Shown piece after piece: positions 97 through 64,000 of a DNA stretch of 64,000 nt. Source of the stretch: an uncultured Enterobacteriaceae bacterium (GTDB taxonomy: Bacteria > Myxococcota_A > UBA9042); the NCBI GenBank assembly GCA_964356325.1, contig CAYHHL010000001.1, forward strand, positions 57,246-121,245, written 5' to 3'. Position 1 is the first letter of the stretch. Each line of letters starts with the position of its first letter. The notes under the pieces were generated by a model. The model was not told the DNA's origin. It did not search any database and saw only the letters and a list, made by a program, of their open reading frames with translations. The translations under genes and the position numbers were made by a program.

Positions 97-1430
97 GGTC
101 GGCCTCCGGGGACGATCTGCTCGCCGTCGATGAAGACCCGCTCCGGTTCGACGCCCAGTTCCAACGGCGAGCGCGGCCACACCACGACGTCGGCGTCCTT
201 GCCCGCCTCGAGCGTGCCCAACCGGTCCGAGACGCCGATGAGCCTGGCAGGGTTGCGCGTCACGGCCTGGAGCGCTGCCTGCTCAGGAAGCCCGTAGTGG
301 TGCGCCTTTGCCGCCTCGAACATCAAGTAACGCGCGTCGATCACCGGGTGATCCGTCTTCAGTGCCAGCAGGACTCCAGCGTCGAACAGCAGTTTGGGCG
401 CGTGCACGCTGCCGTCGTACGCCTCCATCTTGAAGCCCCACAGGTCCGCGAAGGTCGCGACGCCGACGTGCTGGTCCACCAGCAACCGAGGGATCTTCCA
501 GGCTTCCAGCGCGTGATGGATCGCCGCGACGCGAAAGCCGAACTCGCCGGCGATGCGCAACAGCGTTTCGATGTCGTGGACTTCATAGCAATGCACTTGC
601 AGGTACACCTCCCCGCGCAACAGCGCTACGATCGGCTCCAGCTCAGGCTTGAACGGTTTGACGCCTGTATGCAGGGGGTTGCGTTCCCACGTATCCTGCT
701 GATCGCGCAGGTCGCGCGCCTCGAACAGCAGCTTGCGCAGGACCCAGCCGTGGCCCATGCGCGACATCGGCAATTGCGAGCGAGCCCCGTATACGCGCTT
801 GGGATTCTCGCCCATCGCCCACTTCATCGACCGCGGCGGCCTCGGCAAGGCCATCTCGGCGACGGTGTGGCCGCGCAGCTTGACGTAGAACGCCTGCCCG
901 CCGACCGCGTTGCCACTGCCCGGCAGGATGAGCGAGGTCGTGACGCCGCCCGCAACCGCTCGTGCAATCGCGGGATCTTCCGGATCGAAACCGTCCAGGG
1001 CGCGCACCGCGGGCGTAGTTGGCCCGGTCATCTCATTGCCGTCCGCGTGGGCCTTGGCGTTCGGCGCACCGTAGACGCCCAGGTGCGAATGCATGTCGAC
1101 CAGGCCCGGCGTCAAGATCCGGCCGCGCACGTCGATCTCCCGCGCTCCGTCCGGCAATGGAATGCCTTTCGCCACCGCGGTGATCTTGCCATTTTCCAAG
1201 AGGATATCGGTATCCGGCAGCACCGCGCCGGTCGCCGTCCACAGCGTGCCACCGCGCAACAACGTCGCCTGGGCGCGAACGGGCCGCGGCTTGGGGGCCG
1301 GCACCGGCGGCGGCAACTGGGCCAGCGCGGGCAGGGCGGCCAGCAAGGACAACGCCATGGCCATCAGGCAGCGGACAACGGCAAGACGCGTCTTGTGAAC
1401 GGGCCCATTCTGCAAGGGCGAACCGGACAT
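93..1430 (-). CDS. Amidohydrolase-family metal-dependent hydrolase, secreted.
   Basis: The motifs VDMHSHLGVYGAPN and HADGNE are typical of amidohydrolases. A signal peptide MAMALSLLAALPALAQ follows an internal ATG at 1430. Codon usage is GC3-rich in this frame. Confidence 0.75.
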   Translation of the reverse strand: MSGSPLQNGPVHKTRLAVVRCLMAMALSLLAALPALAQLPPPVPAPKPRPVRAQATLLRGGTLWTATGAVLPDTDILLENGKITAVAKGIPLPDGAREIDVRGRILTPGLVDMHSHLGVYGAPNAKAHADGNEMTGPTTPAVRALDGFDPEDPAIARAVAGGVTTSLILPGSGNAVGGQAFYVKLRGHTVAEMALPRPPRSMKWAMGENPKRVYGARSQLPMSRMGHGWVLRKLLFEARDLRDQQDTWERNPLHTGVKPFKPELEPIVALLRGEVYLQVHCYEVHDIETLLRIAGEFGFRVAAIHHALEAWKIPRLLVDQHVGVATFADLWGFKMEAYDGSVHAPKLLFDAGVLLALKTDHPVIDARYLMFEAAKAHHYGLPEQAALQAVTRNPARLIGVSDRLGTLEAGKDADVVVWPRSPLELGVEPERVFIDGEQIVPGGRP

Positions 1431-1608
1431 GTCGTGGGTGTTCCGAGGCCGGACTGACGGCGCGCGGCAGGGTAGAAGTCCCCCGGACAAACGGCAAGAG
1501 CGCGTCCGTTGGCGGCTACGGACCCGCGCTACGCCACCATGGACGAATGACCGCCACGCTTCTAGACTGCCCAGCCTAGCCATCGCCCTTCCCGGCTGCG
1601 CAGGTTCC

Positions 1609-4527
1609 ATGAGCCAACCCAAGACTTCTCGCTACCTAGGCCTCATCGGATTCCTCTGCCAGGGTCTCTGCCTCGCGGGGTGCGGCCTTGGCTCGGTCGG
1701 CGCGGATCTGGAAGCCTGGCGCGCCGCGAAGGACGCGTTCGGAGCCGATGCCACGGTCGCAGCCGATGCTGGCGCCGACGCCTCCACAGCCTGTTCACCC
1801 GCCAATTGTGACGATGACAACCCTTGCACGGCGGATACTTGCAAGGCAGGCGCCTGCCTGCACGCTACCCAGGACGGACCTTGCGACGACGGATCGGGCT
1901 GCACGGGTGCCGATACCTGCAAAGAAGGCAAATGCCAGGGAGCAGCGCGCACTTGGATGTTCGTCTCCGGCATCCCAGGTGCGTTCCAGACGGTCGCCGC
2001 TGTGCGCGAATTGCCAGACGGCGGGGTGTTGGCGGTCGGAGCCACGCAATTCGGCGACGGCGATGCAGTGCCGGCACGCGGGCATACCTTGCGCCTGGAT
2101 GCGGCTGGCAAATCCGTCGGCGAATGGCAAACCGATCCGGACACGCGCTGGACCGCCCTGGTGCCAGTGCCTGCCGCGACCCTTCTGCTCGGGTTTCGCC
2201 GTGACGGCGCGTCCGTAGCCCTGATTTCAGCACCTTTGCCACTCGACGCCGTGCAACCGCCGGCCTTGGTGACCCAGGATGCCTGGCCCGACCAACCCAT
2301 TGCCGCGGAGCCATCTGCAGACCAGACGGTGCTCGTGCTCGCCCAGTCCGGCACCGAGGCGAAGCGGCACGTCGTCCTCGATCGCCTCCATGCCGATGGT
2401 TCAGCGGTGGCGCGCACGCCTGTGCTAGGGACCGAAGGGCTGCAGGTCCAAGGTTGGACCCCGAACGCTGCGGGGCACCTGCTCGTCGGTTCGGCAAACG
2501 ACGGGCAATCCGCTTGGGCCGCCCAGGTTTCGCCCGCGGGAGTCCTGCAGGGCAAGCCGGCGATCTACACGTGTCCACAGGGTACGGACCATCACCTCGT
2601 GGGTGCCGTGCCCGCCGCGTTCGGTTTCGTGCTGGTGGGACACTGCCAGACGGCGGGAGCGGCCCACGTCTGGCTCGTCGGCGTCGATCGCAAGGCCAAG
2701 CCGCTGTGGACCAAGGTCTATCAGGATCAGGCGGATACCATCCTGGCCGTGCGTGCGCTCAGCGCGACGACGTGGCTGGCGGCGGGCTACACGCACGGCA
2801 ACGCCAATGCGCTGCTGCGACCGGCTTTGTGGCAATTCGACGTCACCGGCCAACAGTTGTGGAGTCGCACGATCGAAAAGGGCGCCCTGTTCGCGAGCCT
2901 GACCTTGGCCCAGGACGGCGGCATCTGGCTGGGCGGCGCGGCGACGCAAGGCATGACTTTGACGGCGGCCGATAGCTTCGTCGTGCGCGCCAACGCCTGG
3001 GGCCTGACGGACTGCAAGGGCGCCGGCAAGTGCGCGGGGCCCGGCAACAGCTGTGACGACGGCGACCCTTGCACTTCGGACGTCTGCGTCCTGGCCGGCG
3101 CATGCACGAACACGCAAAACACCTGGCCCTGCAACGACGGTGTCGCGTGCGCCATCGGCGAGACCTGCCAGGGCGGCGCATGCCAGGGCGGCAAGGCGGA
3201 CCTGTGCGACGACGAAAACGCCTGCACCACCGACTCGTGCTCGGACCCCGAGGGCTGCAAACACAAGCCGGCGAGCGGAAGTTGCAGCGACGGCAACGCT
3301 TGCACGACGGGCGACCTCTGTATCGACACGACTTGCACCCCGAACGGCGTGCTCGCGTGCGACGACGGCAACCCCTGCACGACCGACGTTTGCGATCCCG
3401 GCGTCGGCTGCAATGGCCTCAACGTGCCCGACGGCCTGCCCTGCGCCCAGGGCAAGGTGTGCGCCGCCGGCAAGTGTTCGATTCCTTGGGCCAGCGCCGT
3501 CGCTACGGGCGACGACTTCTCCTGCGCCATGCATGACGGCCACCTGCTGTGCTGGGGCGCCAACGATCGCGGCCAGTTGGGCAACGGTGTCGGTGCGGCG
3601 AGCGGCATCCCCGTCGACACTGGAGTCGTCCAGGCGGTGCAGGTAGGCGGCGGCGTCGGCTTCGCGTGCGCCCGCAAGGCCACCGGCAAGATCGCATGCT
3701 GGGGACGCAACGACGTCGGCCAGGCGGGCGTCGTCCCGGGCCCTGGCGCGGCGACTCCGACGGACGTGGCGTTGGCGGCCGTCGCGGTGGATCTCGCAGT
3801 CGGTGCGACCCATGCGTGCGCGAGAACCGTACAGCAGGACGTGTGGTGTTGGGGATCCAATATAGACAAGCAGTTGGACAAGGACGGTGCGGGAAGTTTC
3901 GCGCCCGTGCAGCCCGCGCACGTGACCAAGGCGACGCTGATCGCGGCGGGCGGCGCGCAGACCTGTGCCTTGAAGCCGAACGGTGAGACCGTGTGCTGGG
4001 GCCTGGCCAAACTCGGCGGCGCGTTGTTCGAGAAGACCACTTCGCAACCTCAACTCATCGACCTTCCTGCGTCTCCGGTCGCGCTGGCTGTGGGCGAGAC
4101 TTTCGCGTGCGCCCTCATGAACGACCACTCCGTTTGGTGCTGGGGCGAGAACAGCGTTGGCCAACTCGGCATGGGCAAAAGCGTTCCCGGGACATTCGCG
4201 CCGGTCGCCGTGCTGGGCCTCCAGGACGCCGAGAGCGTGACGGCGGGTTTCCAGCACGCCTGTGTCCTGCGCAAGGGCGGCGCGGTCTGGTGTTGGGGCG
4301 ATCACGTCTGGGGCGAACTCGGCGACAGCACCGCGCTCGCAGGCATCTCGGTGTTGGAGTCGCCGATCCTGGCCTCGATTCAGCCCATGACCCAGCTTGC
4401 CGCACGAAACACTCACACTTGCGGGTTGCTGCCCTCCGGCGCGGTGGCGTGCTGGGGCCACGGAGGCCTGCCGGGACTGGTGGGCCAAAGCAAGGCCTTG
4501 GTGTATCTTCAGGATTCGCTACCCTAG
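1609..4527 (+). CDS. Large lipoprotein combining Myxococcus-type cysteine-rich repeats (DDNPCTADTC, DGNPCTTDVCD) with C-terminal RCC1-like beta-propeller repeats (CWGANDRGQLGNG, five copies).
   Basis: The internal start MSQPK carries an L-A-G-C lipobox. The D-x-N-P-C-T-x-D-x-C motif repeats. There are five CWG-N-x-x-GQLG RCC1-like blades. Confidence 0.8.
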   Translation: MSQPKTSRYLGLIGFLCQGLCLAGCGLGSVGADLEAWRAAKDAFGADATVAADAGADASTACSPANCDDDNPCTADTCKAGACLHATQDGPCDDGSGCTGADTCKEGKCQGAARTWMFVSGIPGAFQTVAAVRELPDGGVLAVGATQFGDGDAVPARGHTLRLDAAGKSVGEWQTDPDTRWTALVPVPAATLLLGFRRDGASVALISAPLPLDAVQPPALVTQDAWPDQPIAAEPSADQTVLVLAQSGTEAKRHVVLDRLHADGSAVARTPVLGTEGLQVQGWTPNAAGHLLVGSANDGQSAWAAQVSPAGVLQGKPAIYTCPQGTDHHLVGAVPAAFGFVLVGHCQTAGAAHVWLVGVDRKAKPLWTKVYQDQADTILAVRALSATTWLAAGYTHGNANALLRPALWQFDVTGQQLWSRTIEKGALFASLTLAQDGGIWLGGAATQGMTLTAADSFVVRANAWGLTDCKGAGKCAGPGNSCDDGDPCTSDVCVLAGACTNTQNTWPCNDGVACAIGETCQGGACQGGKADLCDDENACTTDSCSDPEGCKHKPASGSCSDGNACTTGDLCIDTTCTPNGVLACDDGNPCTTDVCDPGVGCNGLNVPDGLPCAQGKVCAAGKCSIPWASAVATGDDFSCAMHDGHLLCWGANDRGQLGNGVGAASGIPVDTGVVQAVQVGGGVGFACARKATGKIACWGRNDVGQAGVVPGPGAATPTDVALAAVAVDLAVGATHACARTVQQDVWCWGSNIDKQLDKDGAGSFAPVQPAHVTKATLIAAGGAQTCALKPNGETVCWGLAKLGGALFEKTTSQPQLIDLPASPVALAVGETFACALMNDHSVWCWGENSVGQLGMGKSVPGTFAPVAVLGLQDAESVTAGFQHACVLRKGGAVWCWGDHVWGELGDSTALAGISVLESPILASIQPMTQLAARNTHTCGLLPSGAVACWGHGGLPGLVGQSKALVYLQDSLP

Positions 4528-4546: not shown

Positions 4547-5755
4547 ATGCGTTCGAGCTGTTCCCTGGCCTGGACCCTGCGCTCGTGCCTCGTCGCGGCG
4601 CTGGTCGGCTGTGGAACGCCCGCTGCGCCATCCGTGCCCGCGGGCGCCGACACCGTGACCTTCGCGGGCGGCCTGGACGCCGGCAAGACTGACGCCAGCA
4701 AGGACTCCTCCGCGGGCGATGCGACAGTTGCCGACCACGGAATCGCTTCCCACGACACGCTGAAGTCGGACGCCCCCGCCAGCCCCGCGGACACGGTCGC
4801 GCCCACCGACAGCGTGGAGCCTGCCGAAGATATCGTGTCTTCCCCGGATGTTCCAACTGGACCTGTCTGTGGCAACGGCCAATGCGAGTCGCCCGAGTCC
4901 GCCCAGTCGTGCCCCGCCGATTGTCCTGCCGGCCCGCCGGTGTGCGGCGACGCTTGGTGCCAGATCGAGAGCGAGTCTCCCAGCTTGTGCCCGATCGACT
5001 GCGATGCCGGCGCCGTGGCTGTCCTGACCTGCCTCAAGGCGCCGTGCGCGGCCGAACTCGGTGTTTGCCTGGGCAGCAAGGCGTGCATCCTGGCGCTTGG
5101 CGAGGCGATGTCGTGTCTGTCCTCGTGCGGGGGAGGCTCCAACTGCGACGTGTGCGGCAAGATCGCGTCGGCCAAGCCAGGCGGCGACGCCGTGGTCGCG
5201 TGCGGCTTTGCCCAGTGCGGCAGCGCCAGCCCCGACGGCTTCTGCGGCGACGATGAGTGTGGCTCCAAGGAATCCGCGGTGACGTGCCTCGCGGACTGCC
5301 AGGGCGGCGGAGGGCCCGTGTGCGGCGACGGCACCTGCACGCCGCCCGAAAACGCCAGCCAGTGCCCCGCTGACTGCAAGGCCGCCAACGCGTGCGGCGA
5401 CGGCAAGTGCCAGGCCGGCGAGAGCAACGCTTCCTGCCCAGCCGACTGCAAGGGCCCTGCGCCCATGTGCGGCGACGCGGTGTGCCAGGCCAACGAGACC
5501 GTCTCGGCCTGCCCGTTCGACTGCGACCCGGCGATCCAGCCTTCGACCGCGTGCGGCAAGCTGAAGTGCGGCAAGCAAAGCGACGCCTGCTTCACCGACC
5601 CCGAGTGCGCCAAGATCCTGTCCGAGGCGCTGGCCTGCCTGAAGAAGTGTGGTGGCACGCAGGCTTGCACGAACAGTTGCGCCGGACCGGTGCTCGGCAA
5701 CGACCTGGCGTTGGCTCTCGCGTCGTGCGGCCAGCAAGAATGCCCGCCGCCGTGA
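4547..5755 (+). CDS. Secreted modular cysteine-rich lipoprotein with six ~21-aa repeats C-G-[DN]-G-x-C-x3-E-x4-C-P-x-D-C and a ~65-aa Cys-rich spacer module.
   Basis: The signal peptide MRSSCSLAWTLRSCLVAALVGCG has a lipobox. The repeats CGNGQCESPESAQSCPADC, CGDGTCTPPENASQCPADC and others are visible. It is paralogous to the ORF at 61941..63635. Confidence 0.7.
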   Translation: MRSSCSLAWTLRSCLVAALVGCGTPAAPSVPAGADTVTFAGGLDAGKTDASKDSSAGDATVADHGIASHDTLKSDAPASPADTVAPTDSVEPAEDIVSSPDVPTGPVCGNGQCESPESAQSCPADCPAGPPVCGDAWCQIESESPSLCPIDCDAGAVAVLTCLKAPCAAELGVCLGSKACILALGEAMSCLSSCGGGSNCDVCGKIASAKPGGDAVVACGFAQCGSASPDGFCGDDECGSKESAVTCLADCQGGGGPVCGDGTCTPPENASQCPADCKAANACGDGKCQAGESNASCPADCKGPAPMCGDAVCQANETVSACPFDCDPAIQPSTACGKLKCGKQSDACFTDPECAKILSEALACLKKCGGTQACTNSCAGPVLGNDLALALASCGQQECPPP

Positions 5756-17546: not shown

Positions 17547-18827
17547 ATGACGCAAACCTCGCCCGCCCCCAAGCCCTTGCCCGATCTCGGACCGTTGCCC
17601 GCGATGCTCGAAGCCCACGTGCGCGCGCGCTACACGCCCAACCGCATGACGCACAGCCGCGCGCCCCTGGCGGACATCCACCGGGAGGCGCTGCTCGAAC
17701 TCTCCGAGATGTTCACCAGTGATCGCGAGGCCTTGCCTGCAGGCTACCTGACCAAGCCGCGGTTCCGGGGCGCGTACCTGCTGTACTTCGTGCCGACGGG
17801 CGTGGCGACGACGCTTGCGGTGCTGCGATCCGCCCGCCTGCTCGATCGTCCGTTCGAACCGGGTTCGACGCTGCGTGTGCTCGACCTCGGCGCGGGGCCC
17901 CTGACCGCGAGTCTGGCCGTCGCCCTCGCACTGCCGCCGGACGTGCGCCTGGAAGTGGTCGCCATCGACGGTGCGTTGCCGATTCTCGAGGACGGCAGGG
18001 CGCTGATGCAGGCGGTGCGGCCGGGCACGACGGTGCGGCTCATCGACGGCAATCTTCGCGACGGCCGGACCTTGAACGCCGCGGGTGTCGGCTTCGATCT
18101 GATCCTGATGGCCAACATCCTGAACGAATGGGCGGTAGGCGGTCGCAAGCAGCAGTCACCGGGTGAATTCGCCGGCAAGGTCATAGCCGAACGGTTGGCG
18201 TCGGGCGGCGCGGCGGTGTTGATCGAGCCGGGTACCCGCAGCGGTTCGCACCATCTGATCGAAGTGCGTGAACAGATTCTGGAAGTGGGTCCCGAAGTGG
18301 CGATCCTGGCACCGTGCATGGGTCGCGCGCCGTGCCCGATGGCCGGCTCGATGCGCGATTGGTGTCACAGCGAGCAAGCCTGGACGCGGCCGACGTTGGT
18401 GACCGAACTGGACGAGGCGATCGGCCACCGGCGCAGCACGCTGAAGTTCAGCTACCTGGTGGTCGGCGACCGGCCACAGCCCAAGGTGAACCCCGCGAAA
18501 TTCCGCGTGATTGGTGGGCCGATGCGCGCCGACGGGCTGTTTCGCCGCTACCTGTGCGGGCCGAACGGCCGTCTGGTCGCGACATGGCCCGACAACCAAA
18601 CGCCGACGGCCCTTCGCGATGCGTGGCGCGGGGATACCGTGATCGTCGAGGGGCAGGTGCGCGACGAGGCGCGGGGCCGGCGGACCGAGCGGATGCTGGT
18701 CCCGTTGGGCGGACAGAAGCCACCGAGTCCACGCCAGAATCGTCCGCAGGGTGAACGACCGGAGCCGCGATCGCCCATGCCGCCTCCGCCCCGGGGCAAG
18801 CCTCGCCCGCCACGGCGAACTCCTTGA
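17547..18827 (+). CDS. SAM-dependent methyltransferase, Rsm22-like, with a Pro/Arg-rich C-terminal tail.
   Basis: Methyltransferase motif I reads VLDLGAGPLTASLA. A Cys cluster LAPCMGRAPCPMAGSMRDWCH sits downstream as in Rsm22-family proteins. Confidence 0.5.
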   Translation: MTQTSPAPKPLPDLGPLPAMLEAHVRARYTPNRMTHSRAPLADIHREALLELSEMFTSDREALPAGYLTKPRFRGAYLLYFVPTGVATTLAVLRSARLLDRPFEPGSTLRVLDLGAGPLTASLAVALALPPDVRLEVVAIDGALPILEDGRALMQAVRPGTTVRLIDGNLRDGRTLNAAGVGFDLILMANILNEWAVGGRKQQSPGEFAGKVIAERLASGGAAVLIEPGTRSGSHHLIEVREQILEVGPEVAILAPCMGRAPCPMAGSMRDWCHSEQAWTRPTLVTELDEAIGHRRSTLKFSYLVVGDRPQPKVNPAKFRVIGGPMRADGLFRRYLCGPNGRLVATWPDNQTPTALRDAWRGDTVIVEGQVRDEARGRRTERMLVPLGGQKPPSPRQNRPQGERPEPRSPMPPPPRGKPRPPRRTP

Positions 18828-18939
18828 CTCTGCGCGCGACCTGAGCGGGTTGGCATCCCGCGCCCGGCCAAGGTATCCTGCCGCCGGCGTTCGATCGGGC
18901 GCCACGCCTCCTTCCCTGGGAGCCACGTTCAGGAGTTCC

Positions 18940-21882
18940 ATGCGCCATCCAGTCGTGGTCTTCGCCGTTTCCTGCGTTTTTGCAGGCGCTTGCGGCACCG
19001 TCACCGTCACGCCCGAAGATGCGGCAGGCGATGCGCCCCAGGCCGATAGCGCCGACATCGCGGTCGTGTCGGACGTCGGATCGGATGCGACGCCCGGGCA
19101 GGACACTTCCGGTCTAGCCTGCCAGATCGACACCGACTGCCTCGCGATGAAGGGCAAGACGCCGTGCAACCTGCCGGTTTGCGAGGCCAAGGTCTGCAAG
19201 CTCTCGTTGCGCAAGGAAAAGGAGAAGTGCATCAATCCGCTGGATCCCGCGGGCGACTGCGAGGAAGCGACGTGCAGCGCGGACGGCAAGTGCAACAAGG
19301 CGCCGCTGAAGGACTTGAGCAAGTGCATCGGCTCCGTGGTCAACTGCGGCAAGCTGTGCAAGCAAGGCCAGTGCGTGGTTGCCACGACCGAGGACTACGA
19401 CGACAAGAACCCGTGCACCAACGACTTCTGCGATCAGGGCCAGGCCGTCCTGCACACGCCTATCACCGACTTGGGCAAGCTTTGCGACGACGGCGATTCC
19501 TGTACCACTGGCGACGCTTGCGTGACCGGCAAGTGCCAGGGCCAGGTGCAGTCCTGCGACGACAACATCCCGTGTACGACTGATACCTGTGACAAAGCAA
19601 AGGGTTGCGTGCACACCGGAGTCGCCGCCAAGTGCAACGACAGCAACGTTTGCACCAAGGACGCCTGCGATCTCGCGGTGGGCTGCACTGTGGCCGGCTT
19701 CGAACTCGCGAAAGCTTGCGACGATGGCAACTCCTGCACCAAGAATGACTTTTGTGCCGCGGGCGCGTGCGTCAGCAAGGAACTCACTTGCAACTGCAGC
19801 AACGACGCCGACTGCGTGCAGTTCAACCCGACTATCTCGGCCTGCCTGGGCAAGTTCAAGTGCACGATCGGCGACCCCAAGGTGCCCGGCAAGTGCACGC
19901 TGGACCCCGCGAGCGCCGTCAAGTGCGTCACGACCAGCGATACTGCTTGCGTAAAGAATACTTGCGATGCGACTTCGGGCCAATGCTCGCCCCAGCCGGT
20001 CAAGGATGGCCTGGAGTGCGACGACGACAACAAGTGCACCAGCAAGTCCACCTGTCAGAAAGGCGGCTGCGCGGGAACTCCGGACCAGGCTTGCGACGAC
20101 AAGAACCCTTGTACGACAGATGTTTGTGACGCAGAGATCGGCTGCACGTCCACTGCCAACGCCAGCCCGTGCAACGACGCGAACGCGTGCACCGAGAAGG
20201 ACACCTGCGGATCGGGCGTGTGCAGCGGCGTGGCCAAGCAACCGCCGTGCGCGGACGAAATCCCTTGCACCATCGACAAGTGCGACCCGGCCAGCGGCGA
20301 CTGCTCGCACAAGCTGGACAACACGGCATGCGATGACGGCAACCCCTGCACGCTGGACTCGTGCAAGCTGGGCAGCGGGTGCGCGCAGGCTGCCAACGAT
20401 ACGGGCGCTTGCACCGACGGCAACGAATGCACCAAGGACGCGTGCCTGGAAGGCAAGTGCGTCTCGACCGTGACCTGCAAGTGCCAGGGCGACCAGGAAT
20501 GCAACGACAACAACCCTTGCACCGCGGATACTTGCCAGAACGGCCAGTGCGTCGCCAAGGCCACGGACGGAGGGGCGTGCGACACCGGCGACAAGTGCAT
20601 CCAGGCCGGAACGAGCCTCTGCCAGGCCGGCACCTGCAAAGGCGGCACGTTCATCCAATGCAGCGGCACTGGCGACGCTTGCAATGCGGCCGCCTGCAAC
20701 TCCTTGAGTGGAAAGTGCGAAACCGTTTCGAAGGGCGATGGCACTGCCTGCGACGCGGACAACAGCGGCTGCACGACCTCGGATGCCTGCCAAGGCGGCA
20801 AGTGCGTGCCGGGGCCGAAGGTGACGTGCGCTACAGTGGATCCATGCATGATCTCCACGTGCAAGTCGACGGGCGGGAGCGAGCACACCTGCGTCACCGC
20901 GACCAAACCGGTCAACACGCCGTGCGAGGATGGCAAGGTCTGCAGCCAGAACGACTTCTGCGATTCCGCGGGCAAATGCCAACCGGGCGCACCGATGCCT
21001 TGCCCGGGCAGCACTTGCCTCACGGGCGCGTGCTCCGAAACGACCAAGGGCTGCACCATGCAAGCGAAACTGAACGGCACCAAGTGTGATGACGGCCTGT
21101 TCTGCACCACGCAGGATACCTGCGACGGCACGGGCAAGTGCCTGAGCGGCCTGAAGTTGAAGTGCGAGGGCGCGCCGCCTTGCGGTCAGGGCACGTGCGA
21201 CGAGGCGGTCGACCAGTGCGTCGTGGTCTACCCGCCGCAATGCTGTGTCACCACCAGCATCAATTGCGACGACGGCATCAGTTGCAGCAAGGACTACTGC
21301 TCGGCTTCGACGGCGGGCACCCCCGGCCAGTGCATGCACGACCTGCAGACTACGTGCTGCAACCCATTGGCGTACACGTCCGCGTTCGACAAGGGCCTGC
21401 TGAACGGCTTGGAGATCGTCAACTCGACGGGAAGTACGTTGTGGGGCTGGCAGTTGCGCAACCAGTCGCCCATCGCCAACACCCCGCCCGGAGCGCTGTA
21501 CTACGGCGACGCGAAGGCCAACAACTTCGCGTTCAGCGGCGTGGCCAGCAAGGGCACCGCGACGACGCCGCCGATGAACCTGCCGGCCGGGACCGTGGTC
21601 ACGTTCAGCGTGTTCTTCGATACTGAGGCGGGCAATGGCTACGACAAGTTCCAGGTCTCCGCGGTGACCCAGGAAGGCAAGAAGTACCTGATCTGGGAGA
21701 AGACCGGCGGCACCGATCAGCTCAACGTCTGGCTGAAGATCAAGGCGCCCATCGAGACCGTGGCCGGCACCTTGCGCATCGAGTTCCTGTTCGACACCAC
21801 CGACAACGTCAACAACGCCACCAAGGGCGTCTTCCTCGACGACATCACGGTCAACGTCAAATGCGGGCCACCTGCCGGATGA
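18940..21882 (+). CDS. Giant lipoprotein of 980 aa built from many Myxococcus-type cysteine-rich repeats, with a C-terminal ~230-aa non-Cys domain.
   Basis: The signal MRHPVVVFAVSCVFAGACG is preceded by CAGGAG. More than 20 repeats of D-x-N-[PS]-C-T-x-D-x-C-D...G-C are present. The tail LNGLEIVNSTGSTLWGWQL... is beta-rich. Confidence 0.8.
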   Translation: MRHPVVVFAVSCVFAGACGTVTVTPEDAAGDAPQADSADIAVVSDVGSDATPGQDTSGLACQIDTDCLAMKGKTPCNLPVCEAKVCKLSLRKEKEKCINPLDPAGDCEEATCSADGKCNKAPLKDLSKCIGSVVNCGKLCKQGQCVVATTEDYDDKNPCTNDFCDQGQAVLHTPITDLGKLCDDGDSCTTGDACVTGKCQGQVQSCDDNIPCTTDTCDKAKGCVHTGVAAKCNDSNVCTKDACDLAVGCTVAGFELAKACDDGNSCTKNDFCAAGACVSKELTCNCSNDADCVQFNPTISACLGKFKCTIGDPKVPGKCTLDPASAVKCVTTSDTACVKNTCDATSGQCSPQPVKDGLECDDDNKCTSKSTCQKGGCAGTPDQACDDKNPCTTDVCDAEIGCTSTANASPCNDANACTEKDTCGSGVCSGVAKQPPCADEIPCTIDKCDPASGDCSHKLDNTACDDGNPCTLDSCKLGSGCAQAANDTGACTDGNECTKDACLEGKCVSTVTCKCQGDQECNDNNPCTADTCQNGQCVAKATDGGACDTGDKCIQAGTSLCQAGTCKGGTFIQCSGTGDACNAAACNSLSGKCETVSKGDGTACDADNSGCTTSDACQGGKCVPGPKVTCATVDPCMISTCKSTGGSEHTCVTATKPVNTPCEDGKVCSQNDFCDSAGKCQPGAPMPCPGSTCLTGACSETTKGCTMQAKLNGTKCDDGLFCTTQDTCDGTGKCLSGLKLKCEGAPPCGQGTCDEAVDQCVVVYPPQCCVTTSINCDDGISCSKDYCSASTAGTPGQCMHDLQTTCCNPLAYTSAFDKGLLNGLEIVNSTGSTLWGWQLRNQSPIANTPPGALYYGDAKANNFAFSGVASKGTATTPPMNLPAGTVVTFSVFFDTEAGNGYDKFQVSAVTQEGKKYLIWEKTGGTDQLNVWLKIKAPIETVAGTLRIEFLFDTTDNVNNATKGVFLDDITVNVKCGPPAG

Positions 21883-52252: not shown

Positions 52253-52737
52253 GTCTGCACCGACCCCTTGCCCGTCGCCGCGTCGAACGTGACGGCGTAG
52301 GCCTTGAGAGGTTTGTTTTTGGGCGCGGGGCCGTGCTTGACCGAACCGTCCGCGCCGTATTCCGAGAAGTGGCAACCACACACGAGCACGTTCGCGGTCA
52401 GGTCCCACGAGCCTACGCCGCCGTCCAGCTCGGGCGCGAGGTTGCCGCAAGCCGGATCGTGGCTACACGTACTGCTCAACGCCACGATCTGTTTGTCGGA
52501 AACGCGGATGATCACGAACTTGGAGCCACCCGCTTCGGCGCCGACCATGCCGCCAGCCACCTTCAGCGGCGCGAATCTGGCTTGGGCGAGGTCGAATTCG
52601 AACAGCGCGGCGAATACCGGGCCTTGGTGGACTTCGGCGGTTTCGCAGCCCTGCAATGCGGGAGCGAGCGCGACGGCACAGCCCGCGGCACCAAGGCTGC
52701 ACAGGAACTGACGACGGGAAGGTTCGGTTCGGGTCAT
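52249..52737 (-). CDS. Tat-exported Rieske [2Fe-2S] protein.
   Basis: The twin-arginine motif is SRRQFL. The Rieske boxes are CSHDPAC and CGCHFSEY. Confidence 0.75.
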   Translation of the reverse strand: MTRTEPSRRQFLCSLGAAGCAVALAPALQGCETAEVHQGPVFAALFEFDLAQARFAPLKVAGGMVGAEAGGSKFVIIRVSDKQIVALSSTCSHDPACGNLAPELDGGVGSWDLTANVLVCGCHFSEYGADGSVKHGPAPKNKPLKAYAVTFDAATGKGSVQT

Positions 52738-52914
52738 GGCCTTTTCTGGTCGCCGCGACAGGCGGGCACGGCGAAGCTTTGCAGAAGGTTGCGGACGACA
52801 CAAGCCTTGGCGGTATTGGCAATCCGCGACGCAAAACCGCTGTCCGCACAGGGCTTGCCGCTCCGGGCGAGCGCGACTACGCTGCAAGCTCGGCAAAATC
52901 TCAAGGAGGTCCGC

Positions 52915-54927
52915 GTGCTCACCCTACGACTACTGCTCCGGAGTTGGCCCAGCAAATGCCTCGGAATTCTGGTCGCCTCCGCGTCCCTGCTCGCCGCCGT
53001 GCCCGGCCAAGCCGCGGTGCCGAACAGCCTGGCCGTGCAGGGCGCGTTCCAGGCGCAAAGCGGTGGCCCGGCGTCGGACGGTCAGTACGACGTCACCTTT
53101 CGCTTTTTCAAGGCCGAGCAATTCGGCGATCCGCTTTGGACCGAAGGCCCGGTGCAAATCACCGTGAAGAACGGTCTGTTCAGCTATGCACTGGGCACCA
53201 AGACGCCGATCGCGCCGACGACGTTGGCTGGCCTGCCGCAGGTCTGGCTGGGCGTCCAGATTGCCAGCGAGCCGGAAATGCAGCGCAAAGTCCTGCAGTC
53301 CGTGCCATTCACCCTGCGCGCCGGTCTCGCCGAGGGCCTGGACTGCTCGGGTTGCGTGCAGTTGGCGCAGTTGGCCCCAGATGTGCTGGCCGCGTTCGCC
53401 AAGACCGCGGACTTGTCCAAGGCCGCGGTCACCGGTAGTTACAGCGACTTGAAGAACACACCCGACTTGTCGCAATTCGCCAAGGTCAGCAGCCTCGCCA
53501 ATGTCGCCTTCACCGGCAACTGGGCGGATCTCTCCGGCAAACCCTCGTCGGTCAAGGTCGGCTCGGCGTGCGGCAGCGGTTTGGTCGTGGCGGGCATCGC
53601 GGCGGACGGCAGCCTGCAGTGCGTGGCCAACGGTTCGGTCTTGCCGATCGACGGCCTGGACACGATCTCGAACAATCTCCTGACCGTACACTTCGACGAG
53701 ACCGCGGCGGGCAAGGCCTTCCCGATTCCGGACAACGCGCCCAACGGCTTCAGCGACACCCTGGACTTCCCGGACGTCGGCCTGGCGCAGGCGGTCACGG
53801 TCAGCGTCGACTTGACAAATAGCGACTTGTCATCCATCAAGGTGATGCTGACCGACCCGAATGGCGGCACCTACGTTCTGTTCGACAAGGGCCAGAAAGG
53901 CATCGCGCTCAAGGGCTCTTGGCCCGCGCCCAACGCTACGTTGAGCGGCGACCTGGGCATTTGGATCGGCAAAAGCCTCGCTGGCAAATGGAAACTGAAC
54001 GTCACCGACACCGGCTTCCTGAACAACGGCGTCGACGGCCAGTTGAACGCGTGGTCGATCACCATCCGCACGGTTTCTTCGCAAAAGGTCGCTGCCAACG
54101 CGGGGTTCCAGTTCAAGAGCTACGCCAAGCACCCCGTGGTCTGCAACGCCAGCCAGTTGGGTTTCACCTACATCAGCACGACCGACAAGTCCCTGTACAT
54201 CTGCAATGGTACGGACTTCTACCCGCTCGCGTTGGCGGTGGTCGGCAGCCAGAACAGCCCTGGGCTCTCGTGCAAGGACATTCTCGCCAAGGTGCCAGGC
54301 TCCAAGGACGGCGCGTACTGGCTCAATCCCACGGGATCCGGCGCGTTCCAGACTTGGTGCGACATGACCACGGACGGCGGCGGCTGGACCTTGCTGGCCA
54401 AGGTCGACGGCGCCAAGAACACGTTTGCGTTCGACGCGGGGCTGTGGACCGACACCAACCTGCTCAATGCCGACAAGGTCGCGATGGATACGGCCGAGGC
54501 CAAGTACGCAAGCTTCTTTACCTTGCCGTTCACGCAGATGCGCGTCGGCATGGCTGTGGGGCCGACGACCAAGTACGTGGTGATCAACCAGAAGGCGGAT
54601 TCGCTGCGGGCGCTGATGCAGGGCGCCTACGTGGCCACAGGAGTGGGTCGCAACGCATGGAAGTCCTTGATCGGAGGCTCTTCCTTGCAGGCGAACTGCA
54701 ACCTCGAAGGCTTCAATCCGGACTGCGGCGGCCGCAAGGTGCGCATCGGCATCGTCACCAACCAGGAGGGCGACTGCAATTCCTGTGATTCCTACCTGGG
54801 CTTCGGTCACACCGGCCAGGGCGGTTGCGGCGGCGTCGGCGCGGGCTACACCGGCAACATGGCGAGTTGCACCGCGGACAACGGCGACCTGAACATCAAC
54901 AGCGTCGGCTACTTGTTCGCGCGCTGA
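52915..54927 (+). CDS. Secreted protein with a proprotein-convertase P-domain and a C-terminal fibrinogen-related domain.
   Basis: AAGGAGG lies 5 nt upstream of a GTG start and a signal peptide follows. The P-domain-like segment is VSVDLTNSDLSSIKVMLTDPNGGTYVLF...GKWKLNVTDTG...LNAWSITI. The fibrinogen-domain-like segment is CKDILAKVPGSKDGAYWLNPTGSGAFQTWCDMTTDGGGWTLLAKVDG. Confidence 0.65.
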   Translation: MLTLRLLLRSWPSKCLGILVASASLLAAVPGQAAVPNSLAVQGAFQAQSGGPASDGQYDVTFRFFKAEQFGDPLWTEGPVQITVKNGLFSYALGTKTPIAPTTLAGLPQVWLGVQIASEPEMQRKVLQSVPFTLRAGLAEGLDCSGCVQLAQLAPDVLAAFAKTADLSKAAVTGSYSDLKNTPDLSQFAKVSSLANVAFTGNWADLSGKPSSVKVGSACGSGLVVAGIAADGSLQCVANGSVLPIDGLDTISNNLLTVHFDETAAGKAFPIPDNAPNGFSDTLDFPDVGLAQAVTVSVDLTNSDLSSIKVMLTDPNGGTYVLFDKGQKGIALKGSWPAPNATLSGDLGIWIGKSLAGKWKLNVTDTGFLNNGVDGQLNAWSITIRTVSSQKVAANAGFQFKSYAKHPVVCNASQLGFTYISTTDKSLYICNGTDFYPLALAVVGSQNSPGLSCKDILAKVPGSKDGAYWLNPTGSGAFQTWCDMTTDGGGWTLLAKVDGAKNTFAFDAGLWTDTNLLNADKVAMDTAEAKYASFFTLPFTQMRVGMAVGPTTKYVVINQKADSLRALMQGAYVATGVGRNAWKSLIGGSSLQANCNLEGFNPDCGGRKVRIGIVTNQEGDCNSCDSYLGFGHTGQGGCGGVGAGYTGNMASCTADNGDLNINSVGYLFAR

Positions 54928-60764: not shown

Positions 60765-61721
60765 TCATCGCGAGGGCTCCCTTTCGTGTGGTAAAGGATC
60801 GTGATCTGAAGCAGAAGTGGCGGGGACAGAAGCGGTTTGGTGCGGCGTGGCTTGATCGGCGAGGAAGCGGTGACGCAGCCCACCGTACAGATCCGGGCGC
60901 CGATCGCGAAAGAACGGCCACCAGTTGCGCACGTCACGGGACCGGTCGCGATCGCAGCGGACGATCAAGGTTTCGGCTTCGTCGCGCCCCGCTTCGGCCA
61001 ACATTTCGCCCTGGGGACCGGCACAAAACGTGTGCCCCCAGAAGTTTATTCCGCCCTCGCGGCCGACCCGGTTGACCGCGGCGACGTACAAACCGTTGGC
61101 GATCGCGTGGCTGCGTTGGATCGTGCGCCAGGCGTCGAGTTGCCTGGCGTGCTCCTCGAGCGGTTCGCTGTCGATGCTGCCAATCGCGGTCGGGTAGACG
61201 AGCACTTCGGCGCCGCGCAGGGCAGTCTCGCGGGCCGCTTCTGGAAACCACTGGTCCCAGCAGATCAGCACGCCGACCTTGGCGAATTTCGTCTCGAAAA
61301 TGCGGAAACCCTCGTCGCCGGGGGTGAAGTAGAACTTCTCGGCGTACAAAGGGTCGTTGGGAATGTGCGACTTGCGGTAGCGGCCGAGATAGCTGCCATC
61401 GGCGTCCAACACCGCGGTAGTATTGTAGTACAGCCCGGGTGCCGCCTCTTCGAACAGCGAGGCCACGATGACCACGCCCAGTTCGCCCGCCAGATCGCCC
61501 AGCCTTTGTGTCGTCGGCCCCGGTACGGCTTCGGCAAGATCGAAGTGCGCGGGCTCCATGTCCTGGCAGAAGTACGCACTGCGGAACAATTCGGGCAAGA
61601 CCACGATCTGCGCACCCCGAGCGGCCGCTGCGCGCACTTCCGCAATCGCGCTGCCGAGTTGATCGGCTCCGCTGGCGTTGGCGCGCAACTGCAGAAGACC
61701 AAGGGTGAACGGCGGGCGCAT
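60765..61721 (-). CDS. aguB: N-carbamoylputrescine amidohydrolase (nitrilase/CN-hydrolase superfamily).
   Basis: The catalytic Cys lies in VVLPELF...RKSHIP...VGVLICWDQWFPE. The gene is adjacent to aguA. Confidence 0.8.
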   Translation of the reverse strand: MRPPFTLGLLQLRANASGADQLGSAIAEVRAAAARGAQIVVLPELFRSAYFCQDMEPAHFDLAEAVPGPTTQRLGDLAGELGVVIVASLFEEAAPGLYYNTTAVLDADGSYLGRYRKSHIPNDPLYAEKFYFTPGDEGFRIFETKFAKVGVLICWDQWFPEAARETALRGAEVLVYPTAIGSIDSEPLEEHARQLDAWRTIQRSHAIANGLYVAAVNRVGREGGINFWGHTFCAGPQGEMLAEAGRDEAETLIVRCDRDRSRDVRNWWPFFRDRRPDLYGGLRHRFLADQATPHQTASVPATSASDHDPLPHEREPSR

Positions 61722-61826
61722 CGCGTCTCCGGTCTGACGGTGGACCGCCAAGGTAGCGATTCCCGGCCAAGCGACATAGCCGCTCGCCGGGCCTGGGTCA
61801 AATACAGAGGAACCGGGAACAGAAAT

Positions 61827-61860
61827 GTGAAGAGAGTCGTGAAGAGAACTGTGAAGACCC
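61827..61860 (+). promoter_or_regulatory. Three tandem ~12-bp direct repeats (GTGAAGAGAGTC / GTGAAGAGAACT / GTGAAGACCC) in a divergent intergenic region.
   Basis: The repeats are read directly. They lie about 80 nt upstream of the Cys-rich lipoprotein gene and about 110 nt upstream of aguB on the opposite strand. Confidence 0.4.
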
Positions 61861-61940
61861 TAGCGCGTGCCCGGCGGGGCATGGCATCCTTTCGCGACCG
61901 ATCCAGCTCGAGGTTGGACGCGCGACCCATGGAGCTTGCC

Positions 61941-63635
61941 ATGTTCCGAATGCAGATTGCGGGTGTATTCACCTTCCTCGCCCTGGCCGGAGCCAGTGTG
62001 AGCGGATGCAGCAGCGACAACGCCGCCAGCGGTCCGTTCTTCGTAGGCACCGGCGCGGACGGCACCTCCGGCGACGGCGGCAACCTCGATGACGGCAACT
62101 CCGGCACTGACGGCGACGTGACGATCGTTTCCGGCCCCGACGCCAAGCATGGCGACGCGCACGCCAGTTTCGATATCGGCCCGAAACCCGACGCCATCAC
62201 GCCCGATCCCGACACCGCCACGCCAATGCCCGACGGCGGCCCGTTCCCCGGCGGTTCGTGTGCAGGCATCTGCGGCAAGTACGTGAAGGGCGCGCCGTGC
62301 CACTGCGACAACCAATGCGCGCAGTACGGTGATTGCTGTGGTGATTACAATGACTTGTGCGTTGGACCCAAGCCGACCAAGTGCGGCAACGGCCAGTGCG
62401 ACCCAGGCGAGACATCGGCCAACTGTGCCCAGGACTGCAAACCCGACTTGGGCGATGTCGTTGCCTGCCTCAAGCAGAAGTGCACGTACGAAATGGAGAT
62501 GTGCCTGTCGAACAAGACGTGCGCCCAGGTCATCGGCTGCGTCGCGGAGTGCAAGGACGAGGACTGCGCCGACGACTGCACAAAGGGCATGGACATGCAG
62601 GTCGCGCAGAAGTACCTGCAACCGCTCGGCGAATGCGGCGAGAAGGTCGGCTGCGTCCAGGGAGGAAACCAGTCCGTCTGCGGCGATGGCCAGTGCGAGC
62701 CGCCCGAGACCGACAACTCCTGCCCGCAGGATTGCAAGGGCCCGCCGCCGATGGCTTTCTGCGGCGACGGACTGTGCAACGGCGGCGAGACTTCGGCCAC
62801 GTGCGCCAAGGACTGCGGCACGGTCATTCCGCCTCCGGGCGTGATCGTCCAATGCCTGGCCGGCAAGTGCGGCGACTACTACAAGGCCTGCGCCAACAAC
62901 GCTGGCTGTCAGAAGGTGATCGAGTGCGCCTCCCAGTGCGCGGACTTCAGCTGCATGGCGAACTGCGCGCAGGTGACGGACATCGCCACGCAACAGAAGT
63001 TCGTGTTGCCGCTCGGTCAGTGTGGACAGAACGCGGGCTGCTTCGACACCAACCCGCCGACGAAATGCGGAAACGGCCTCTGTGAGTCCGGCGAGACCGG
63101 CGCTTCCTGCCCCCAGGACTGCAAGACCAGCAATCCGATTGAACAATGCCTCAAGGAAAAGTGCGGCAAGGTCTGGACGCCCTGCGCGGCGAACGCCGAG
63201 TGCTATGCCGCGGCGCAGTGCTTGTACAAGGGTGGTTCGCTCCTGCAGTGCGTCAAGAGCTGGCAGACCGGCCAGATGCTCAACAGCGTGGTGACGTGTG
63301 GCAACCAGAACAAGTGCTTGAACGTTGCCCCGCCAGTGTCGTCGTGCCAGGGCAAGTGCGGCGTGTACGACCCGAACGCCGCGTGCCAGTGCGACACCGT
63401 GTGCAAGCAGATGGGCAATTGCTGCGGCGACTACGCCACTTACTGCGGCACGACCCCGGCCAAATGCGGCGACGGCAAGTGCGATGTCGCGGCGGGCGAG
63501 CCCAAGACCTGCCCGACGGATTGCGGACCGCCGCCGCCCGCGAAGTGCGCTACCAAGAGCGATTGCGCTGCCGACGAGGTCTGCTGCGCCAAGCCGGACG
63601 GGCAACTGTGCGTGAAGCTGGGGCAATGTAACTAG
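61941..63635 (+). CDS. Modular cysteine-rich lipoprotein with a Gly/Asp-rich N-terminus, two somatomedin-B-like 8-Cys domains, CGDG-x-C 21-aa repeats and ~65-aa Cys modules. It is a paralogue of the ORF at 4547..5755.
   Basis: GGAG lies 6 nt upstream of an ATG and the lipobox is VSGC. The SMB-like spacing C-x3-C-x8-C-x-C-x3-C-x5-CC-x6-C occurs twice, in CAGICGKYVKGAPCHCDNQCAQYGDCCGDYNDLC and CQGKCGVYDPNAACQCDTVCKQMGNCCGDYATYC. Repeats include CGNGQCDPGETSANCAQDC and CGDGKCDVAAGEPKTCPTDC. Confidence 0.75.
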   Translation: MFRMQIAGVFTFLALAGASVSGCSSDNAASGPFFVGTGADGTSGDGGNLDDGNSGTDGDVTIVSGPDAKHGDAHASFDIGPKPDAITPDPDTATPMPDGGPFPGGSCAGICGKYVKGAPCHCDNQCAQYGDCCGDYNDLCVGPKPTKCGNGQCDPGETSANCAQDCKPDLGDVVACLKQKCTYEMEMCLSNKTCAQVIGCVAECKDEDCADDCTKGMDMQVAQKYLQPLGECGEKVGCVQGGNQSVCGDGQCEPPETDNSCPQDCKGPPPMAFCGDGLCNGGETSATCAKDCGTVIPPPGVIVQCLAGKCGDYYKACANNAGCQKVIECASQCADFSCMANCAQVTDIATQQKFVLPLGQCGQNAGCFDTNPPTKCGNGLCESGETGASCPQDCKTSNPIEQCLKEKCGKVWTPCAANAECYAAAQCLYKGGSLLQCVKSWQTGQMLNSVVTCGNQNKCLNVAPPVSSCQGKCGVYDPNAACQCDTVCKQMGNCCGDYATYCGTTPAKCGDGKCDVAAGEPKTCPTDCGPPPPAKCATKSDCAADEVCCAKPDGQLCVKLGQCN

Positions 63636-63637
63636 TG

Positions 63638-64000
63638 GTGTCTGCCTTTCCGTCCCTGCGCATCGAACGCGACGCTTTGGTGCCGCGCGGTTCGTTCGCC
63701 GAGGCCCAAGCCACGTTCCTGCATCCCGACGCGCAGGCCGTCGCCCGCCTGGACGCCCTGGTGCGCGAGAAGAACGCTGGCATCGTCGCGCACTTCTATA
63801 TGGACGCCGAACTCCAGGGCGTGCTCGCCGCCTGCCACTGGCCACACATCCACATCTCGGACTCGCTGCAGATGGCCGATCGCGCGGTCGACATGGCCAA
63901 GCTCGGCGTGCGCACAATCCTGGTCGCCGGCGTGGACTTCATGACCGAGAACGTGCGCGCGGTGCTCGATGGCGCGGGCTTCCAGCTCGGCGGGCCCCAA
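63638..64000 (+). CDS. nadA: Quinolinate synthase NadA, 5' partial, continuing beyond the window.
   Basis: AGIVAHFYMDAELQ...ISDSLQMADRAV...ILVAGVDFMTENVRAVL matches the NadA N-terminal region. The GTG start at 63635 or 63638 overlaps the TAG of the upstream gene. Confidence 0.75.
   Translation, partial: MSAFPSLRIERDALVPRGSFAEAQATFLHPDAQAVARLDALVREKNAGIVAHFYMDAELQGVLAACHWPHIHISDSLQMADRAVDMAKLGVRTILVAGVDFMTENVRAVLDGAGFQLGGPQ

Follow-up and report, generated by a model that had tools for sequence, protein, structure and literature searches.

Somatomedin-B domains in a predicted disulfide-rich lipoprotein family of Myxococcota

In a 64,000-nt contig stretch (in the following called the window; all coordinates are positions of the window), we analyzed the gene at 61941-63635 on the plus strand, which encodes a cysteine-rich lipoprotein with two somatomedin-B (SMB) domains. 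SMB is usually regarded as an animal or eukaryotic extracellular module. Judged by sequence and predicted fold, both eight-cysteine segments of this protein truly belong to the somatomedin-B family, and the protein appears to be exported, lipid-anchored and made solely of disulfide-knot modules. We consider this protein, from an uncultured bacterium of the Myxococcota and with its disulfide-locked modules on a tether, most likely to be a binding or adhesion scaffold.

An earlier note on this DNA had reported two segments with the cysteine spacing C-x3-C-x8-C-x-C-x3-C-x5-CC-x6-C, and we located this pattern at amino acids (aa) 107-140 (nt 62259-62360) and 469-502 (nt 63345-63446), the very coordinates given there. 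The motifs CxCD (CHCDN and CQCDT) and G[DN]CCxDY (GDCCGDY and GNCCGDY), also listed there, are found in both segments. The note had further called the spacing exactly that of SMB. This holds for the cysteine pattern but not for the animal loop lengths, because EndoU needs one and ENPP2 two extra residues in the second loop. Among bacterial SMB domains the second loop spans x6 to x11. Nowhere else in the window, read in all six frames, did a relaxed SMB pattern match.

The search against the Pfam model PF01033 (gathering cut-off 23.1 bits) that the note had proposed gave a score of 57.5 bits for the whole protein; scanned individually, the two segments reached 46.4 and 40.2 bits, each match extending over positions 2-39 of the 40 in the model. 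Searching the PDB sequences by phmmer yielded solely SMB-bearing chains, human EndoU (9ftw) being the best match, followed by ENPP2, vitronectin and ENPP1/3; for the second domain (SMB2) the best match was the second SMB domain of human EndoU, 9ftw. In the HMMER alignments all eight cysteines are in register with those of the EndoU and ENPP2 domains, with an indel of 1-2 residues in loop 2. From homologues of the lipoprotein we took 104 distinct SMB-like segments. A profile built from 89 of these (alignment A2) matched 43 PDB sequences, all of them SMB carriers, led by EndoU (70.7 bits) and followed by ENPP1/2/3, venom phosphodiesterase, vitronectin and SUSD2.

An AlphaFold2 model of the first domain (SMB1), based on alignment A2, reached a mean pLDDT of 89.5. 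Its top 50 Foldseek matches in the PDB were all ENPP SMB domains, mostly from autotaxin, with TMq values of 0.64-0.79, root-mean-square deviations (rmsd) of 1.5-2.4 Å, 35-41 aligned columns and 37-48% identity; compared with the ENPP2 SMB domains, the predicted structure had TMq values of 0.73-0.79. In the comparison with the vitronectin structure 1OC0, also suggested earlier, one SMB domain of the full-length model aligned to 1OC0_B with a TM score of 0.89 and an rmsd of 0.9 Å over 37 residues. The PF01033 scores lie above threshold and the fold predicted is that of SMB, a compact disulfide knot having one short helix, rather than another, the two points on which the assignment could have failed.

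The bacterial domains thus share with the SMB domains (PF01033; SCOP g.64) of vitronectin, ENPP1/2/3, EndoU (PP11) and SUSD2 the register of eight cysteines, the CxCD and G[DN]CCxDY motifs, a length of ~36-40 residues and a location that is, by prediction, extracellular and oxidising. They further resemble those of ENPP and EndoU in that nucleases and other hydrolases are frequent partners. In contrast to animal SMB domains, they are found in a bacterial host, and their carrier here is a lipoprotein without a catalytic domain. Loop 2 is shorter by 1-2 residues than in the aligned animal domains, and the arginine that animal SMB domains have in a C-x-G-R-C motif is replaced by lysine.

The two domains are embedded in a succession of other small cysteine-rich modules, for which conservation was judged from alignments of 12 (A1) and 54 homologues (A3). 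The features of the gene, all on the plus strand, are as follows.

61941..63635, plus strand: complete lipoprotein gene, 564 aa, cysteine-rich and modular
61941..62009, plus strand: signal peptide and lipobox, aa 1-23 (...FLALAGASVSG/C23); helix predicted at aa 9-18, C23 invariant in A1 and A3
62010..62255, plus strand: disordered tether, aa 24-105, with many D, G, T and P residues; pLDDT 27-43, no predicted secondary structure, poorly conserved in A1
62256..62363, plus strand: SMB domain 1, aa 106-141 (cysteine core nt 62259-62360); PF01033 46.4 bits alone, AlphaFold2 pLDDT 89.5
62382..62438, plus strand: four-cysteine mini-module R1 (CGNGQCDPGETSANCAQDC), aa 148-166; found by regular expression, motif conserved in A1
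62466..62654, plus strand: helical ten-cysteine domain H1, aa 176-238; five helices, pLDDT 93-97, PF07137 positions 2-57 at 20.6 bits
62679..62735, plus strand: mini-module R2, aa 247-265; found by regular expression, C247, G248, G250, C252, E256, C261, D264 and C265 invariant in A1
62760..62816, plus strand: mini-module R3, aa 274-292; found by regular expression
62853..63041, plus strand: helical ten-cysteine domain H2, aa 305-367; PF07137 13.4 bits
63066..63122, plus strand: mini-module R4, aa 376-394; found by regular expression, conserved in A1
63147..63317, plus strand: H3, an eight-cysteine variant of the H domain, aa 403-459; helices at aa 399-456, pLDDT 86-94, eight cysteines invariant in A1
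63345..63446, plus strand: SMB domain 2, aa 469-502; PF01033 40.2 bits alone, pLDDT 84-86 in the full-length model
63465..63524, plus strand: mini-module R5, aa 509-528; found by regular expression, conserved in A1
63546..63629, plus strand: C-terminal six-cysteine beta-hairpin module (CATKSDCAADEVCCAKPDGQLCVKLGQC), aa 536-563; two strands, pLDDT 91-96

The gene is a single open reading frame (ORF), and its translation gives the module order SMB, mini, H, mini, mini, H, mini, H, SMB, mini and C-terminal hairpin. The MFR... start is common to the lipoprotein and its closest homologues P0002 and P0003, and the identical gene and protein (P0001) were found on ENA and Logan contigs from one study. 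At the N-terminus, a hydrophobic helix is followed by V-S-G-C23, which matches the lipobox pattern [LVI][ASTVI][GAS]C at the level of sequence; a simple lipobox-like pattern fits the N-terminus of most family members. There are 71 cysteines (12.6%). Apart from that of the lipobox, all of them lie in modules (70), where their number is even in each module and suffices for 35 disulfides. The description of a secreted, highly disulfide-rich modular lipoprotein given in the earlier note was correct.

We detected no catalytic domain in the lipoprotein with Pfam or NCBIfam. The NCBIfam scan of the whole lipoprotein returned no family, and cysteine-rich Myxococcus repeats of the TIGR02232 type were not detected; the tether (aa 24-105) gave no family match either. 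The mini-module follows the pattern CG[DN]GxC-x5-8-C-x2-3-DC over 19-20 residues, which no Pfam or NCBIfam model matches. Across the family, there are 2-19 copies of it per protein, and it also occurs in fusions with trypsin, DUF5060 and alpha/beta-hydrolase as well as in an archaeal (Woesearchaeota) protein (relatives P0064, P0066, P0089, P0093). The C-terminal hairpin module is kept at the C-terminus of ~28 homologues. We tried WAP (PF00095) for this module and rejected it, because the score of 17.8 bits lies below the cut-off of 20.8 and there are six cysteines instead of eight.

The H domains (H1-H3) appear homologous to the cysteine-rich N-terminal domain of plant violaxanthin de-epoxidase (VDE). 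The match of H1 to PF07137 has an E-value of 3e-4 and a score below the cut-off of 25.7 bits. Among the 62 H segments of the family (alignment A4), 41 match PF07137 positions 2-69 with E ≤ 0.01, the best E-value being 7.6e-9. Two relatives, P0077 and P0116, score above the PF07137 cut-off, with the match confined to positions 3-69 and without the lipocalin part. Aligning the H profile to the N-terminus of Arabidopsis VDE by hhalign, with a provisional VDE sequence, gave a probability of 93% and an E-value of 2.4e-7. Independently of that sequence, the cysteines of spinach VDE are numbered 9, 14, 21, 27, 33, 37, 46, 50, 65 and 72 (PMC4412432), and the cysteine spacing of H1 equals that from Cys9 to Cys72, namely x4, x6, x5, x5, x3, x3 and x5-6, with loops of variable length before and after the second x3. 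By analogy with spinach VDE, the disulfides of H1 would be C176-C194, C181-C188, C200-C213, C204-C209 and C232-C238. The VDE domain compared here is that of plants and algae, which makes up the N-terminal ~70 positions of PF07137. Unlike VDE, the bacterial H domains lack a lipocalin domain and form one to four stand-alone repeats in lipoproteins; the known domain has no solved structure to compare. They would be the first relatives of the VDE N-terminal domain to stand alone; the role of that domain in the plant enzyme was still to be established as of 2015 (PMC4412432). Foldseek comparison of the full-length model with the PDB gave solely SMB matches, so the H domain, the mini-modules and the C-terminal module are without detectable solved relatives. 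Likewise, the H-domain profile matched only LDL-receptor entries among the PDB sequences, and these were insignificant.

A cysteine content of 12.6% could also be read as metallothionein-like, with reduced cysteines binding metal or buffering redox and a superficial resemblance to SMB. We regard this as very improbable, given the export through a lipoprotein signal, the even cysteine counts per module, the strong SMB matches in sequence and fold, and the state of the homologous VDE domain, in which the cysteines form disulfides and metal amounts to <1 mol% (PMC4412432).

We further examined the surroundings of the gene. A 2022 fold-phylogeny paper counts SCOP g.64 (the SMB fold) among the synapomorphies of Holozoa (PMC9541633). 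Such a distribution would favor eukaryotic contamination, a transfer from an animal in the very recent past or a chance cysteine pattern as the source of the domains. We give these explanations almost no credence and regard them as refuted. Its product carries a bacterial lipobox, and the TAG stop of the gene overlaps the GTG start of nadA, the gene that follows, by one base (63633-63637). The GC content of 64-66% inside the gene matches that around it (62-68%), as does its GC3 of 0.85 compared to 0.77-0.88 in the neighbours. The homologous gene is directly followed by nadA in nine loci (L004-L008, L010, L011, L013, L015), all from Myxococcota metagenome-assembled genomes (MAGs), and the family comprises over 100 different SMB segments from bacteria. 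A chance cysteine pattern is excluded because among 200,000 shuffles of the mature protein only six contained even one strict match, compared to the two observed. The adjacent genes in the window are the following.

63635..64000, plus strand: start of nadA (quinolinate synthase), PF02445; gene calling in L001 and L002 places a gene there too
60765..61751, minus strand: CN-hydrolase of the N-carbamoylputrescine-amidase type, divergent neighbour, PF00795 211 bits

The nadA gene is present here in its long form of 497 aa. A scan of positions 61500-64000 for promoters and terminators found no sites, and none terminator-like between the lipoprotein gene and nadA. An ABC transporter is found upstream in six loci and a CN-hydrolase gene in five (L005, L007, L008, L011, L013); four of the latter also have an agmatine-deiminase gene upstream. 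Between the nadA-syntenic loci, NadA is 59-68% identical, compared to 28-43% for the lipoprotein with its varying number of modules. The lipoprotein gene is native and long-resident at its genomic position. The conserved synteny together with the low identity of the lipoprotein indicates that the gene is old, vertically inherited and fast-evolving, and its fast evolution is consistent with an exposed surface protein. No functional logic is apparent in the nadA and polyamine neighbours; the synteny is evidence of history, not of mechanism.

To describe the family, we used a protein search that yielded 159 homologues. All came from metagenomes or MAGs, and the small number with names are labelled Myxococcales, Deltaproteobacteria or Myxococcota. 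The family figures rest on 128 retrieved sequences. About half of these lipoproteins hold one to four SMB domains and 88 have H domains; their cysteine content is ~9-16% in most cases and 3-7% in a few enzyme-fused relatives. Relatives with H and mini-modules include fusions with trypsin-like proteases. Scanning one genome per GTDB species, we found 41 loci, nearly all in Myxococcota MAGs from lakes and groundwater, also including Enhygromyxa, Polyangiaceae and the isolate Nannocystaceae bacterium ST9. The best match among the GTDB species representatives, a set that does not contain the window's own genome, is 43% identical.

The earlier note had also held bacterial SMB domains to be rare and had called for their taxonomic distribution. 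This expectation does not hold for Myxococcota, where they are frequent and combinatorially mobile; isolated cases are seen in MAGs with labels of other prokaryotic phyla and in a green alga. Counting matches above the Pfam cut-off on ORFs of non-orthologous loci, we found SMB in the following arrangements.

Enhygromyxa: reprolysin M12B protease with SMB
Non-orthologous locus: PMP-type beta-helix protein with SMB
Non-orthologous locus: ASST/NHL propeller with SMB
Polyangiaceae: AhpC/TSA redoxin with SMB
L036 and L044: TGase_elicitor (transglutaminase-like) proteins with SMB
Non-orthologous locus: FG-GAP protein with SMB
L042, 6972-9908: eukaryote-type protein-arginine deiminase (PF03068, 290 bits) with two SMB domains
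Non-orthologous locus: Dicty_CTDC repeat protein with SMB
L030, 7785-11429: 17 tandem SMB domains in one ORF

A second SMB search, seeded with the tandem array of L030, added as partners Exo_endo_phos, Endonuclease_1, trypsin (including one from the cultured Nannocystaceae ST9), M36, M43 and C1 peptidases, metallo-beta-lactamase and P-domain. These architectures show SMB in Myxococcota to be a mobile extracellular accessory module on many secreted enzymes. Three SMB domains each were seen on an Endonuclease_1 and on an Exo_endo_phos nuclease (among P0139, P0132 and P0177), echoing the ENPP and EndoU layouts of animals. Single cases of SMB are labelled Chitinophagaceae (Bacteroidota; with a T9SS sorting domain), Phycisphaerales (Planctomycetota), Candidatus Woesearchaeota and the green alga Prasinococcus. 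The protein from Woesearchaeota has three SMB domains and a segment that looks Kazal-like by eye. The Pfam precomputation and JGI product names ('somatomedin B domain-containing protein') already tag such proteins; our literature search on prokaryotic SMB domains found no paper.

A further characteristic of these modules is the avoidance of arginine. The mature, overall acidic lipoprotein (62010-63632) has 0 arginines and 37 lysines in 541 residues, whereas its cytoplasmic neighbours have 6.8-9.1% arginine and 0.6-3.1% lysine. In the top 40 family members (P0001-P0040) the median arginine content is 0.00% and the maximum 0.63%. The 89 SMB segments have 0.29% arginine and 6.1% lysine, and the 62 H segments 0.25% and 5.8%, respectively. 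SMB domains on unrelated enzymes are nearly arginine-free as well, compared to 3-5% arginine in most of the enzyme parts. Possible causes are resistance to arginine-specific proteases or deiminases, the avoidance, in modules where an odd cysteine would be harmful, of CGY codons, from which a single transition leads to a cysteine codon, or a need for lysine.

Taking these results together, we propose that the ~80-residue disordered tether would hold the disulfide-locked modules away from the membrane, and that the lipoprotein most likely acts as a protease-resistant scaffold for binding or adhesion, putatively displayed at the surface. The SMB knots would be the parts that bind ligands or proteins, the role that SMB has in vitronectin and ENPP2, and the helical and mini-modules would be rigid spacers or further binding units. 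We favor this role because there is no catalytic domain, because the SMB domains of vitronectin and ENPP2 have binding roles, and because SMB is used as an accessory on secreted hydrolases. Several points weigh against it. The binding role is inferred from architecture and from analogy with animal SMB domains; the residues that we take to form the PAI-1 hot spot of vitronectin are just partly conserved in the bacterial domains; and in the full-length model the mini-modules have a pLDDT of just 62-74, with an undefined inter-domain arrangement (pTM 0.31). There is no RGD motif in the lipoprotein either, and together with the presumably partial conservation of the PAI-1 hot spot this means that the animal ligands are not expected.

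The protein might instead be a multi-headed protease inhibitor or decoy that shields the cell surface from secreted proteases of the cell itself or of competitors, with knots acting in the manner of WAP, Kazal or antistasin-type inhibitor domains. The weak WAP-likeness of the C-terminal module (17.8 bits) would fit such a role, although it is below the cut-off and has six cysteines, not eight, and no inhibitor family was detected by Pfam or NCBIfam. Relatives with H and mini-modules are fused to trypsin-like proteases, SMB is often found on proteases, and the SMB protein of Woesearchaeota has the segment that appears Kazal-like by eye. The lack of arginine would give resistance to arginine-specific proteases, but with 37 lysines there is no general resistance to trypsin-like cleavage. 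On balance we judge an inhibitor to be improbable.

Quite improbable, too, is that the protein is no specific binder but a structural, cross-linkable part of a cell coat or extracellular matrix, with its many lysines and glutamines as substrates of secreted transglutaminase-like enzymes. The acidic mature protein with its 37 lysines and no arginine would be suited to it, the TGase_elicitor proteins of Myxococcota (L036, L044) carry the same SMB module, and the module number is variable while orthologues diverge fast (28-43% identity, compared to 59-68% for NadA). However, there is no cross-linking enzyme in the conserved neighbourhood, and the lipid anchor favors a cell-attached over a released protein. 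The tethered binding or adhesion scaffold hence remains our preferred reading.

The window contains further cysteine-rich proteins. At ~4547-5755 on the plus strand lies the gene of a second cysteine-rich lipoprotein (MRSSCSLAWTLRSCLVAALVGC...), a paralogue of the family with at least three of the same four-cysteine mini-modules (nt 4868, 5321 and 5393) and H-like helical cysteine domains, and without SMB. Two large cysteine-rich ORFs at 1429-4527 and 18751-21882, both on the plus strand, encode 1032 and 1043 aa with 'DDGNPCTxDxC' repeats that look like Dictyostelium CTDC by eye; the former ends in RCC1-like repeats, also recognized by eye, and the latter has 0.31% arginine and 7.3% lysine. 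Other Myxococcota cysteine-rich modular proteins of this Dicty_CTDC-like type resemble the lipoprotein at 61941-63635 in the phylum and in that a lipoprotein or other signal peptide precedes a series of small disulfide modules, but use different repeat families. The 864-aa ORF at 52333-54927 on the plus strand has a proprotein-convertase P-domain (35.7 bits), a short Fibrinogen_C match barely above the cut-off and a sub-threshold match to the fibrillar-collagen C-terminal domain. It is predicted to be another protein with eukaryote-like extracellular modules.

The kind of system described here is not new and domain databases already tag these proteins, while the lipoprotein family is uncharacterised. 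What our analysis adds is the breadth of SMB in the phylum, its conflict with a 'Holozoa-only' view, the link between the H domains and VDE, and the arginine-free composition. As SMB occurs outside Holozoa, the listing of g.64 as a synapomorphy fails at the level of distribution, provided that the MAG labels are reliable. With the same proviso, the data establish this distribution, not the direction of transfer. A doubtful though possible scenario is that SMB is not a holozoan invention and that Myxococcota have a large, old reservoir of SMB and VDE N-terminal modules, connected to nucleases, proteases and deiminases, from which the eukaryotic SMB domains of ENPP, EndoU and vitronectin and the plant VDE N-terminal domain were derived or with which they were exchanged. 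In this scenario the pairing of SMB and nuclease may have been transferred as one unit. The bacterial SMB domains offer small, arginine-free variants for studying the folding and binding of disulfide knots, and their finding corrects the assumed distribution of the SMB fold.

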